Shown one piece after another: positions 4,672-6,847 of a stretch of DNA of 26,308 nucleotides. The stretch is from a virus (Duplodnaviria; Heunggongvirae; Uroviricota; Caudoviricetes): the IMG/VR virus record IMGVR_UViG_2713896785_000023; one strand, given 5' to 3'. The first letter of the stretch is position 1, and the number at the start of each line of letters is the position of its first letter. The notes beneath the pieces were generated by a model. The model had not been told where the DNA came from. It saw nothing but the letters and a program-made list of their open reading frames with translations, and ran no database searches. The position numbers and the translations under genes were made by a program.

Positions 4672-4700
4672 TTGCGTACGCGTTAGCTCTTTTGTATATT
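4672..4700 (+). promoter_or_regulatory. Candidate sigma70 promoter for the three-gene module
   Basis: TTGCGT-17 bp-TATATT about 40 bp upstream of the GTG at 4740. Confidence 0.4.
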
Positions 4701-4739
4701 TAACTTTTCTCTAATTCTAAAGGTAAAAGGTAACGACTA

Positions 4740-5792
4740 GTGAAAGCGAACGACTACCTGTTTGGTCTTCAGGCAAGAAACATCTCTTTCAGGCTTCTTC
4801 AAGGCGAATTAAAGTATTTTAATATGAAGTCAGCTAGGGGGTGGACAGAGTTGCTATCTGATTATGCAAGTAATAATGAAAAGGATATAATAAATAATCT
4901 CAAGGAGATTTACCTCAGCCAATTGAATTACAGCAATCGGGCCGTATTTTTTGCTCAACTGAATAATATCACTGACGCAATCCTCTTGAAAAAAACCTTG
5001 TTAAATCTGATTAACAGCAACGATAAAGATTATCAAGAATACATTGCCACCTACCCATTGCCAATAGATAGCGCAACACATAAAAAAGTCAAAAAATTAA
5101 GACCAGTCTGCATCTCCCACTCTCAACATGGTAACTCGATCACTATTACAACAACTTATCTTCGTCCATTCAAAGAAAGAAGTGCAATTGAAACAAATAC
5201 ACTAAGCCCAGCAACACAAAAAGAACTCAATTGTTTTGATGAAATAATTGGAATAAAAGATAGATACATCCAATGTTTTGACACAATTACTTTTAACTAT
5301 GTTTCCGGCGAAATAACATTTGAAATCGACATGTGTACAAATCTTAACCATAATGAATTGGAGCGCGCATCAACAAGATATCGTAGAATATTAATGTACC
5401 TTTTCCATAAAGAGAATTCATATCACGTCGCCTTCATTAGAAAAAATATATTTACTGCTATCGATAAACTTTACAAATCTGCCGATGGTACCATTTTAAA
5501 ACTTGGGCATGCCACAGGAACAGGCTCAGTAAAAGAAGAAAAAATGAGAAAGAGAAAAGATGATTTAAGGAAGGAAAAATATCATGCCGCAGGCTTAGCG
5601 GCAATTGGAGGAAAAACTAATAACTTTAGTATTTCTAAACAATGGAATGGAGCACACAATAACATTTTAACAATGCATGTACCCGGACATTTTTCTTTAA
5701 TTTCATCCTCGCTACCATTTATAAATCATGTTATAATCGAAGGGTGTGTTTGTAAATCAGATTATGAGTTATTGATGTCAAAGGTTTTCTAA
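4740..5792 (+). CDS. Hypothetical protein, module gene A (~350 aa), AT-rich
   Basis: Long ORF; GTG start at 4740 (first ATG is 27 codons in, start uncertain); stop TAA abuts the next ATG. No motif I recognise except a weak R-x6-H (RILMYLFH). Confidence 0.6.
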   Translation: MKANDYLFGLQARNISFRLLQGELKYFNMKSARGWTELLSDYASNNEKDIINNLKEIYLSQLNYSNRAVFFAQLNNITDAILLKKTLLNLINSNDKDYQEYIATYPLPIDSATHKKVKKLRPVCISHSQHGNSITITTTYLRPFKERSAIETNTLSPATQKELNCFDEIIGIKDRYIQCFDTITFNYVSGEITFEIDMCTNLNHNELERASTRYRRILMYLFHKENSYHVAFIRKNIFTAIDKLYKSADGTILKLGHATGTGSVKEEKMRKRKDDLRKEKYHAAGLAAIGGKTNNFSISKQWNGAHNNILTMHVPGHFSLISSSLPFINHVIIEGCVCKSDYELLMSKVF

Positions 5793-6185
5793 ATGAATAA
5801 GCAGGAAATGAAAGATATCATACAACATTCTTTTGCTACCGACAGCAAAGTTGGTTTTGCATGTATGAATATTTATCATTACCTGCTTAATGAAGATCTG
5901 GATAATTTAAAATATATAACATTCAATAACTTGCAAAAAGTCAGTAATGTTGATCAAAGTATCCTTTACGAGGCAATTACTTATCTATCCGGAGAAAAAG
6001 CACCAATATTATCAATCGGATACGAATATATTGATGGTGATGACATTTTTGAAATCTCTCAAGATGAGTTAAGCAAAATATATTCAGAAGGAACATTTTA
6101 TTTCGATGGCAAACCAGTCCTCAATTGGCAGTCGAAAGTTTACATTTACTTTTATGCATCAGAGTTCTGGAAAGGCCTAGAATGA
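5793..6185 (+). CDS. Hypothetical acidic protein, module gene B (130 aa)
   Basis: ATG immediately after the gene A stop; 3' end overlaps the gene C start by 4 nt (ATGA). Confidence 0.6.
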   Translation: MNKQEMKDIIQHSFATDSKVGFACMNIYHYLLNEDLDNLKYITFNNLQKVSNVDQSILYEAITYLSGEKAPILSIGYEYIDGDDIFEISQDELSKIYSEGTFYFDGKPVLNWQSKVYIYFYASEFWKGLE

Positions 6186-6847
6186 TGGATAATCAGAATA
6201 ATTTTACGTTAGAATCGCTGAAGTCCGCAGCGTCATTCGATGAGAGCGCAGCACGCCTTTATCGAAGAATTACATGCAATTCATACGATAAATTTATTGA
6301 AATGTTTTATATTGACTTAGAAAAAACAATCAGATTGATTGAAAAAAATGCAAGCTTAATGCAAAACGATGGAGAAGACCGTTTATCTATAGAAATAATT
6401 AATATACTAATTGGCTTCGGATATGATTCTGGTCATGATAATTATATAAATGGGCACTCAGACATTGTTGTAAGTTTCAAAAACTACACATGGATTGGAG
6501 AGGCTAAAATTCATAGCTCATACGACTATTTAATGGAAGGATTCCATCAATTATGCTCTCGTTACTCCACAGGAAGTGAAGATGATTGTCAAGGAGGATT
6601 AATAATTTATGTGAAAAGCAACAATGCATTAGATGTCGTAGAGAAATGGAAAAAAACATTAACCTCTAAAAAAGATGACTTTGAAGATTTTTATTTATCC
6701 GATTGCAAAACAAGAGAAAAGTTGAGCTTTTACTCTAGCCACAAACACCCTAAATCTGGATTGCCATACAAAGTAAGACATTTCGCTGTAATATTGGGAT
6801 TTGCACCTAAAGACAAAAGTGCGAGAACAGCAAAGTCCAGAAAATAA
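6182..6847 (+). CDS. Hypothetical protein with PD-(D/E)xK-like nuclease motif, module gene C (~221 aa)
   Basis: Start ATGATG at 6182 overlapping the gene B stop. Motif ...EDRLSIEIINIL...GHSDIVVSFKNYTWIGEAKI fits E...D-x13-E-x-K of restriction-endonuclease-fold enzymes. Motif-level only. Confidence 0.55.
   Translation: MMDNQNNFTLESLKSAASFDESAARLYRRITCNSYDKFIEMFYIDLEKTIRLIEKNASLMQNDGEDRLSIEIINILIGFGYDSGHDNYINGHSDIVVSFKNYTWIGEAKIHSSYDYLMEGFHQLCSRYSTGSEDDCQGGLIIYVKSNNALDVVEKWKKTLTSKKDDFEDFYLSDCKTREKLSFYSSHKHPKSGLPYKVRHFAVILGFAPKDKSARTAKSRK

Follow-up and report, generated by a model that had tools for sequence, protein, structure and literature searches.

The virus record IMGVR_UViG_2713896785_000023 in IMG/VR, a stretch of 26,308 nt that was analysed at its full length and is here called the window, represents a Stx1a-converting lambdoid prophage of the O145:H28 type. 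Between the gene for the Q antiterminator and stx1A it contained 3 genes, which we refer to as A, B, and C (Table 1), and which correspond gene for gene to an experimentally validated anti-phage system, DS-21. The sequence was 100% identical over positions 4200-7300 to phages Stx1_14040, Stx1_14744, and others, and the A-B-C cassette (4672-6847) was also 100% identical in the chromosome of strain 2013C-3264, in which the annotation of the matching 26,308 bases was consistent with the open reading frames (ORFs) of the window.

An earlier note, made from the sequence alone, had described the cassette as a tightly coupled and AT-rich operon that is transcribed opposite to the late operon, converges on Q at a distance of about 30 bp and encodes no Walker motif, all of which was borne out. 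The stop codon of gene A (TAA, 5790-5792) abuts the ATG of gene B at 5793 with a gap of 0 nt, genes B and C overlap by 4 nt in the sequence ATGA at 6182-6185, which holds the TGA of B and the ATG of C, and the stop codon of C (6845-6847) is separated from the convergent stop codon of Q by exactly 30 bp. The orientation of the cassette opposes all phage operons, and its GC content was 33.7% (0.344, 0.321, and 0.335 for A, B, and C), compared with 45% for the whole window (0.453) and with 0.44 for Q, 0.513 for dnaB, and 0.418 for stx1A. No Walker A motif was detected in any of the 3 proteins and no methyltransferase among the annotated genes of the window. The start of gene A had to be moved, since there is no start codon at position 4672, the first position of the interval given in the note; both RefSeq and the alignment of homologs, which is conserved from residue 1, indicate the GTG codon at 4740.

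Table 1. Positions in the window of the A-B-C cassette and its flanking features
Feature	Position	Strand	Description
stx1B	2939-3208	minus	late gene
stx1A	3218-4165	minus	late gene
Left junction of cargo slot	4604-4687		from alignment of the window with cq9, APEC, and p4A
Cassette-specific leader of A	4688-4739	plus	window diverges from p4A right of ~4687
Gene A	4740-5792	plus	GTG start, 350 aa, basic, predicted RdgC-like fold, DS-21A homolog
Gene B	5793-6185	plus	130 aa, acidic, DS-21B homolog
Gene C	6182-6847	plus	221 aa, BamHI-like PD-(D/E)xK nuclease, DS-21C homolog
Hairpin over C stop and C-Q gap	6826-6876		from RNA fold
Q antiterminator	6878-7225	minus	Pfam PF06530, E 1e-45, 115 aa

Homology to the DS-21 defence system

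No significant match to A, B, or C was obtained in Pfam, NCBIfam, or PADLOC v2.0.0, the PHROGs database placed them in 3 families that are all of unknown function, and a text search of the literature with 4 WP accessions returned no paper. Matches of B to CARF3 (PADLOC, E 0.007) and of C to PDC-S54 (PADLOC, E 0.008) were weak and were disregarded. The link to a known system was instead found through the supplementary tables of DeWeirdt et al. (Science 2026, PMC13092281). According to these, DS-21 (working name TOXO) is a validated three-gene system from an ECOR E. coli strain that was discovered with DefensePredictor and encodes proteins of 365, 140, and 211 amino acids at positions 7805-9963. 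The gene order and the sizes match those of the window genes, which encode proteins of 350, 130, and 221 amino acids, and all 3 window proteins were homologous, each to its counterpart. Protein C was 35% identical to DS-21C (E 5e-39) with the catalytic residues E-D...D...ExK aligned, while the BLASTP comparisons gave 26% identity over the full length for B (E 1e-7) and 20% over 172 amino acids for A (E 3e-8). A comparison of the A-family profile with DS-21A in hhalign gave a probability of 99.9 and an E of 5.6e-35 over 343 columns. The exact B protein, WP_001041173.1, is moreover listed in Table S10 of the same source as a predicted novel defence gene with a log-odds of 6.28.

DS-21 protects E. 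coli against Drexlerviridae-type phages. In Tables S6 and S7 of PMC13092281, the -log10 efficiency of plating is given as 4.48 on Bas1 and 2.0 on Bas11 and the system is marked as defensive (TRUE); smaller plaques are recorded for Bas3, Bas9, Bas67, and T3, and no effect for most other phages of the panel. The host was MG1655 pCV1-TOXO, a prophage-free K-12 strain. Neither RdgC nor RexA is tied to DS-21 in the supplements of this source, and our literature search identified no other paper that mentions DS-21. Judged by their sequences, the window genes are a divergent member of this validated defence family. The view that the cassette is an anti-phage module is thus upheld by its gene-for-gene homology to DS-21, and the statement that it matches no named system holds for PADLOC v2.0.0, Pfam, and NCBIfam and no longer for the literature, since DS-21 has been published.

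The 3 genes were compared with homologs in other genomes. The A family contained 636 representatives at 50% identity, and a genome search with a narrow A alignment recovered only 2 loci. The order A-B-C and the tight spacing were retained in 14 of 14 other contexts examined, a distant A representative also had B and C downstream, and a scan with hidden Markov models identified A, B, and C in all of the triad contexts and in none of the control loci. These contexts included a Lysobacter locus beside genes for Gabija-like OLD-TOPRIM and UvrD proteins and a metagenomic integrase island. In Serratia plymuthica, the neighbouring genes encode an MmeI-type enzyme as well as a DEAD helicase and T5orf172 protein, and in Cedecea the triad shares an island next to an integrase with genes for a DUF4928 protein and a methylase. 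Others were located in a satellite-like element with an integrase, AlpA, a primase-like gene, and capsid genes, in a lambdoid prophage of Enterobacter bugandensis where the triad is convergent with a PF06530-type Q, in a P2-like Klebsiella phage where it adjoins the portal gene, in a PM2-like Vibrio prophage element, and in Aromatoleum and an Enterobacteriaceae metagenome-assembled genome.

Homologs of C were also present in 51 viral contigs of IMG/VR, at 24% to 100% identity. Gene A was located upstream in all of the complete loci, B was detected in 49 of the 51 contigs with a gap of fitting size in the remaining 2, and a convergent Q homolog followed C in 15 of them. The A-B-C triad is inherited as a unit across Proteobacteria and phages, and the fact that other genera have it in defence islands and in hotspots of mobile elements agrees with the earlier description of the cassette as mobile accessory cargo. 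Within E. coli it is rare: 23 of 5,426 complete genomes carried the cassette, with C and Q contiguous in 23 genomes also. The prophages that contained it were of the Stx1a type, the Stx2e type (pig strain cq9) and a non-Stx type in avian pathogenic E. coli (APEC), a distribution that likewise agrees with mobile cargo.

Folds of the 3 proteins

Protein C consists of an N-terminal helical region (residues ~1-60) followed by a BamHI-like PD-(D/E)xK core of the order alpha-beta-beta-beta-alpha-beta, with the glutamate on the first helix, the aspartate opening strand 2, and the (D/E)xK motif on strand 3. The putative catalytic residues are E65, D94, E107, and K109, and the best structural matches were BamHI, OkrAI, BstYI, and BglII. 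Structurally, C is thus a BamHI-class PD-(D/E)xK nuclease, and its catalytic constellation is intact and invariant. This confirms the nuclease assignment made from the letters, with the motif residues on the canonical alpha-beta-beta-beta core; the aspartate and the ExK of the proposed motif E...D-x13-ExK were identified correctly, whereas the spacing was not (D94-x12-E107-x-K109). The core fold and the catalytic constellation are shared with BamHI, BglII, BstYI, and OkrAI, whereas the sequence identity to these enzymes is only ~10% and C differs from them by its N-terminal helical extension, by the absence of a cognate methyltransferase and by its obligate partners A and B. Profile searches against the sequences in PDB gave nothing for either C or B. 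We propose that C is the effector of the system.

For protein A, the only significant full-length structural match was RdgC (PDB 2owl, 2owy), as obtained by 2 independent methods, and the predicted structure of A has the three-dimensional fold of RdgC. CENP-L, CENP-N, Chl4, and Iml3 were also among its structural matches. RdgC, RexA, Iml3, and Chl4 have been described as a single class of DNA-binding folds (PMC11077077), and the recurrence of CENP-L, CENP-N, Chl4, and Iml3 from this class among the matches of A supports the view of A as an RdgC-like protein. Both A and RdgC have elements inserted between strands, with long helices in A (204-226 and 239-246) where RdgC has a tip domain, whereas A differs by an extra N-terminal helical region, by a conserved motif at residues 257-285 that is unique to it, and by always being in an operon with B and C. 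The 257-285 motif (HATGTxSxKxEKMR...DLRxExxH) is the most strongly conserved part of the protein. The Pfam model for RdgC (PF04381) matched neither A nor any of 44 family members, and a profile search of A against PDB sequences produced chance-level matches to Dcp1 only (E ~0.1). By analogy with this fold class, we propose that A may be a sensor of DNA or of DNA intermediates.

It was also noted that Pfam and PADLOC scans of the 44 diverse A members returned a single weak Cas2 match in one member, and that a distant A-family member (alignment A3) gave weak matches to PADLOC Cas2 models (E 2.5e-4 to 2e-3). A Cas2-like similarity of the RexA/RdgC fold is reported in the RexA structure paper, and the Cas2 match may reflect a shared ferredoxin-like sub-domain rather than chance.

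Protein B is acidic, with 20 D/E compared with 10 K/R residues, and no recognisable domain was identified in it by Pfam, NCBIfam, or PADLOC v2.0.0. A word-indexed homolog search retrieved no relatives of B, and its homologs were collected through synteny. The syntenic B genes from 10 loci aligned as a family with the pattern YLSG...ILxxxFEFIDGxx...GxFYHPxxG...FxYF, and a Pfam scan of these 10 members gave a single weak HTH_AsnC match in one of them. B is proposed to be an adaptor or an inhibitor that acts between A and C.

The cargo slot next to Q

The distance between Q and stx1A was ~2.7 kb in the window compared with ~500 bp in BP-4795, in agreement with the statement in the earlier note that Q lies beside stx1A in the reference Stx1 prophages. 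The suggestion that the genes had been dropped into the Q-stx junction was correct as regards mobile cargo, but the window does not differ from other Stx1 phages by such an indel alone: similarity to those of the BP-4795 type ends at position 4657, the Q of the window belongs to another family than the Q of these phages, and the whole Q module is unlike that of classical Stx1 phages.

The left junction of the slot was common to prophages of this Q family irrespective of their cargo, including p4A, and an exact 18-mer within it was present only in the E. coli copies and in p4A. It contains an intrinsic terminator on the minus strand, with a stem from 4626 to 4607 followed by a T run, and a -10-like element on the plus strand, TACAAT at 4660-4665, which reads TATAAT in p4A. 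Our guess is that the cassette is transcribed from a promoter with this -10 element and with a start near 4672. Downstream of it, the leader of A includes a Shine-Dalgarno-like AAGGT at 4727-4731, ~8 nt ahead of the GTG codon.

At the other end, the hairpin over the stop codon of C and the C-Q gap had a predicted stability of -21 kcal/mol (z -5.8 on the plus strand and -5.4 on the minus strand), and none of 200 shuffled sequences was as stable. It is followed on the plus strand by the U-rich tract UUUUUAUCUAUUU, because of which it probably ends the A-B-C operon, and it is a probable barrier between the convergent transcripts as well. Homology between Q alleles with different cargo starts at ~6900, ~22 nt inside the 3' end of Q, and matches to related Q alleles begin at query positions 501-504. 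Since this homology begins only at ~6900, the last ~7 codons of Q appear to travel with the cargo, and since the left junction ends at 4687, the swappable cassette would extend over ~4688-6900.

Comparison of the slot in other strains (L008 3033-5891, L077 1533-4391, L007 3584-5888, L079 2096-4487, and L078 2968-4254) revealed varied cargo. In p4A and the O111:H8 strain 8E, it consisted of DUF262 with a HEPN-like nuclease and a C5 methyltransferase, in 2015C-3107 of a ParB/Srx-N protein with a Dam methylase, and in MDR_56 of a DS-1-like pair, a nucleoid-associated protein together with one of 404 aa that begins with the same 24 residues as the DS-1 protein WP_000150292.1. In HM670, the slot contained an AB5 pair on the late strand, a scabin-like ADP-ribosyltransferase and a subtilase-type B subunit. 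Because other strains carry such varied defence and toxin cargo at this site, the slot is a hotspot for both.

A late promoter or qut site cognate to the Q of the window was not located with confidence. A candidate late promoter in the 30-bp gap between C and Q (TAGATA-N17-GATAAT, minus strand) was rejected, as it is specific to the cargo and not conserved with the Q allele. In the segment 4385-4525 on the minus strand, which is shared with BP-4795-type phages, we noted by eye a promoter similar to λ pR', with a -35 element TTGCAC at 4522-4517, an 18-nt spacer, and a -10 element TAAATA at 4498-4493, and, ~70 nt downstream of it, a hairpin at 4425-4395 that resembles a terminator (GCCAGCC...GGCUGGC, then U6). 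This segment looks like the pR'-tR' unit of the other Q family, retained beside the PF06530-type Q.

The Q gene is intact in the window and is annotated as frameshifted in the prophage of strain 2013C-3264 (L001 8207-8553), where the cassette is 100% identical; some carriers of the cassette may be defective for late gene and Stx1 expression. Beyond Q, the minus strand encodes an 85-aa coiled-coil-like ORF, then a DnaB-type helicase, and then a DnaC-like ATPase loader, with Q directly after these genes and no nin region at 7225-9763, in which the window differs from λ, 933W, and BP-4795, where roi, ninG, and ninH precede Q.

Accessory-looking genes were also noted in the early region, at 11115-13511 and 17438-18265 in the annotation of the matching region (L025): 2 tandem ash-family paralogs, and a Lar-family restriction-alleviation protein followed by an ORF6N-domain protein, as well as an SPFH-domain protein near the integrase. 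Within 19274-26308, the integrase gene of the prophage (19274-20446) borders on a truncated autotransporter gene, ypjA/ehaD, and on ypjCB, which places the end of the prophage and its integration site inside the window.

Alternative explanations, mechanism, and known systems

The best explanation of these data is that the cassette is a self-contained operon, carried as accessory cargo of a Stx1a prophage in a variable slot downstream of Q. We consider it likely that it is a DS-21-family defence operon with C as its nuclease effector.

Several observations weigh against this interpretation or parts of it. The identity of only 20% to 35% to the DS-21 proteins suggests, at the level of sequence, that the window copy forms a separate subfamily, and the DS-21 phenotype in PMC13092281 comes from a plasmid screen. 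The mutant sheet of that source contains no catalytic mutants of DS-21 and its main text no discussion of the system, and because the tables list no such mutants and the text is silent, the nuclease role is one that we infer even for DS-21. The TM-scores of A to RdgC were only 0.37-0.41, with the domains differently oriented, and hhalign comparisons of the A family detected no sequence similarity to E. coli RdgC (probability 0.3) or to λ RexA (probability 0.05). Binding of DNA by A is suggested solely by the fold of the model, in which the 257-285 motif falls in the least confident part, and this motif could be an enzymatic or ligand site instead of a DNA-binding surface. For B, searches against PDB sequences and Pfam gave no informative match, and a consensus promoter scan upstream of A gave no hit.

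Among the alternatives, the one that survives best, though improbable, is a toxin-antitoxin or addiction module in which C is a toxic nuclease, B its antitoxin, and A a regulator, which would stabilise the prophage or the cassette with defence as a by-product. A small acidic protein encoded directly upstream of a nuclease and tightly coupled to it, the lack of a host-protecting methyltransferase, and the location on mobile elements would all be in line with such a module. A two-part pair would, however, not typically be accompanied by a 350-aa protein that is as strictly conserved as B and C down to 24% identity in C, the triad is also present in defence islands of non-mobile chromosomal regions, and the effect of DS-21 is phage-specific, ~10^4.5-fold on Bas1.

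Quite improbable is a role in phage DNA metabolism, whereby an RdgC-like modulator of RecA and a nuclease would tune recombination, the SOS response, induction, and the release of Stx1. E. coli RdgC inhibits RecA functions including the cleavage of LexA, RexA biases the λ switch (PMC11077077), and the cassette adjoins the late regulator Q and stx1. Such a role is difficult to reconcile with triads that are located outside prophages next to Gabija-like and MmeI-type systems or in unrelated virus types (P2-like, PM2-like, and satellite-like), with the foreign base composition and the transcription opposite to the phage operons, and with the protection of a prophage-free K-12 host by the DS-21 homolog.

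We assign an equally low probability to a different wiring, in which A would be a nucleotide-processing enzyme, for example of the triphosphate-tunnel type, and C would be controlled by a small-molecule signal. The partial matches of A to triphosphate-tunnel enzymes that prompt this idea were weak, covering ~80-96 residues with scores typical of generic antiparallel sheets, whereas significant full-length matches were given by RdgC alone with both methods; nor does C have a recognisable nucleotide-sensing domain of the CARF or SAVED type.

Finally, it is highly improbable that C is a BamHI-class type II restriction endonuclease of the orphan or solitary kind, acting with a methyltransferase whose gene is located elsewhere. 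In favour of this, the closest structures of C are the restriction enzymes listed above, one UniRef homolog is named 'Restriction endonuclease', and in cq9 and APEC there is a DNA methyltransferase gene at a distance of ~600 bp from gene A. That gene, however, is missing both in the window and in the Stx1a prophages of O145:H28, where the cassette is 100% intact, and it also comes after the DUF262 and HEPN cargo of p4A, which assigns it to the phage backbone and not to the cassette. No methylase is consistently linked to the triad in Lysobacter, L006, the Enterobacter prophage, or the Vibrio element, and the invariant partners of C are A and B. As no methyltransferase travels with the cassette, the restriction-modification reading was rejected.

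For a DS-21-type defence operon, the following course of events can be envisaged. A, B, and C would be expressed in the lysogen from their own promoter near 4660, and A, as a basic RdgC/RexA-like dimer, would monitor a phage-specific state of the DNA, for which linear DNA entering the cell, intermediates of replication or recombination, and a protein-DNA complex are candidates. The acidic B would either link A to C or silence C until A is triggered, and C, once freed or activated, would cut DNA and thereby stop the infecting phage, possibly with the death of the cell. Since no cognate methyltransferase accompanies C, discrimination between self and non-self would depend on gating by A and B and not on methylation, and since there is no Walker motif in A, B, or C, activation appears to be independent of an NTPase. 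This specific wiring of sensor and adaptor is put forward tentatively, and we give it less than an even chance of being correct.

In its most far-reaching form, the hypothesis would be that the DS-21 family represents a sensor-effector design of a new kind, 'Rex-like sensing with a nuclease output', with the Q slot as a dedicated defence and toxin hotspot. A ring protein of the RdgC/RexA fold would here recognise phage DNA or a recombination intermediate without NTP and, via a small acidic partner, unleash a methylation-independent nuclease of the BamHI class. We regard this as speculative and rather unlikely in its entirety. If true, late or early-right transcription of the prophage could oppose the convergent cassette upon induction.

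The results provide the DS-21 family with structural hypotheses for 2 of its 3 parts, with A as a candidate sensor of the RdgC fold and C as a BamHI-class effector for which putative catalytic residues can be named. They also suggest that some Stx1a (O145:H28) and Stx2e phages carry an anti-phage nuclease system beside their toxin genes, which could affect superinfection, the fitness of lysogens, and the spread of Stx phages. The slot after this family of Q genes seems to be a swap-in site for defence systems (DS-21-like, DS-1-like, DUF262 with HEPN, and ParB-like) as well as for toxins (Stx1, Stx2e, and the AB5 ADP-ribosyltransferase), and may be useful for mining.

Compared with other known systems, the triad has no counterpart of the SMC-like LmuB of Lamassu, in which LmuA is a PDDEXK protein, and PADLOC gave no Lamassu match at E<=1. 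It also differs from Hachiman (HamA) by the absence of the helicase HamB and from McrBC (McrC) by the absence of the AAA+ protein McrB. λ RexAB resembles the window cassette in being encoded by a lambdoid prophage and expressed in the lysogen, as would be expected for A-B-C, and A is predicted to belong to the same RdgC fold class. In contrast to RexAB, which includes the membrane protein RexB, the cassette encodes no RexB-like protein, B and C are soluble, the output would be a soluble nuclease, and the genes are located after Q rather than in the immunity region.

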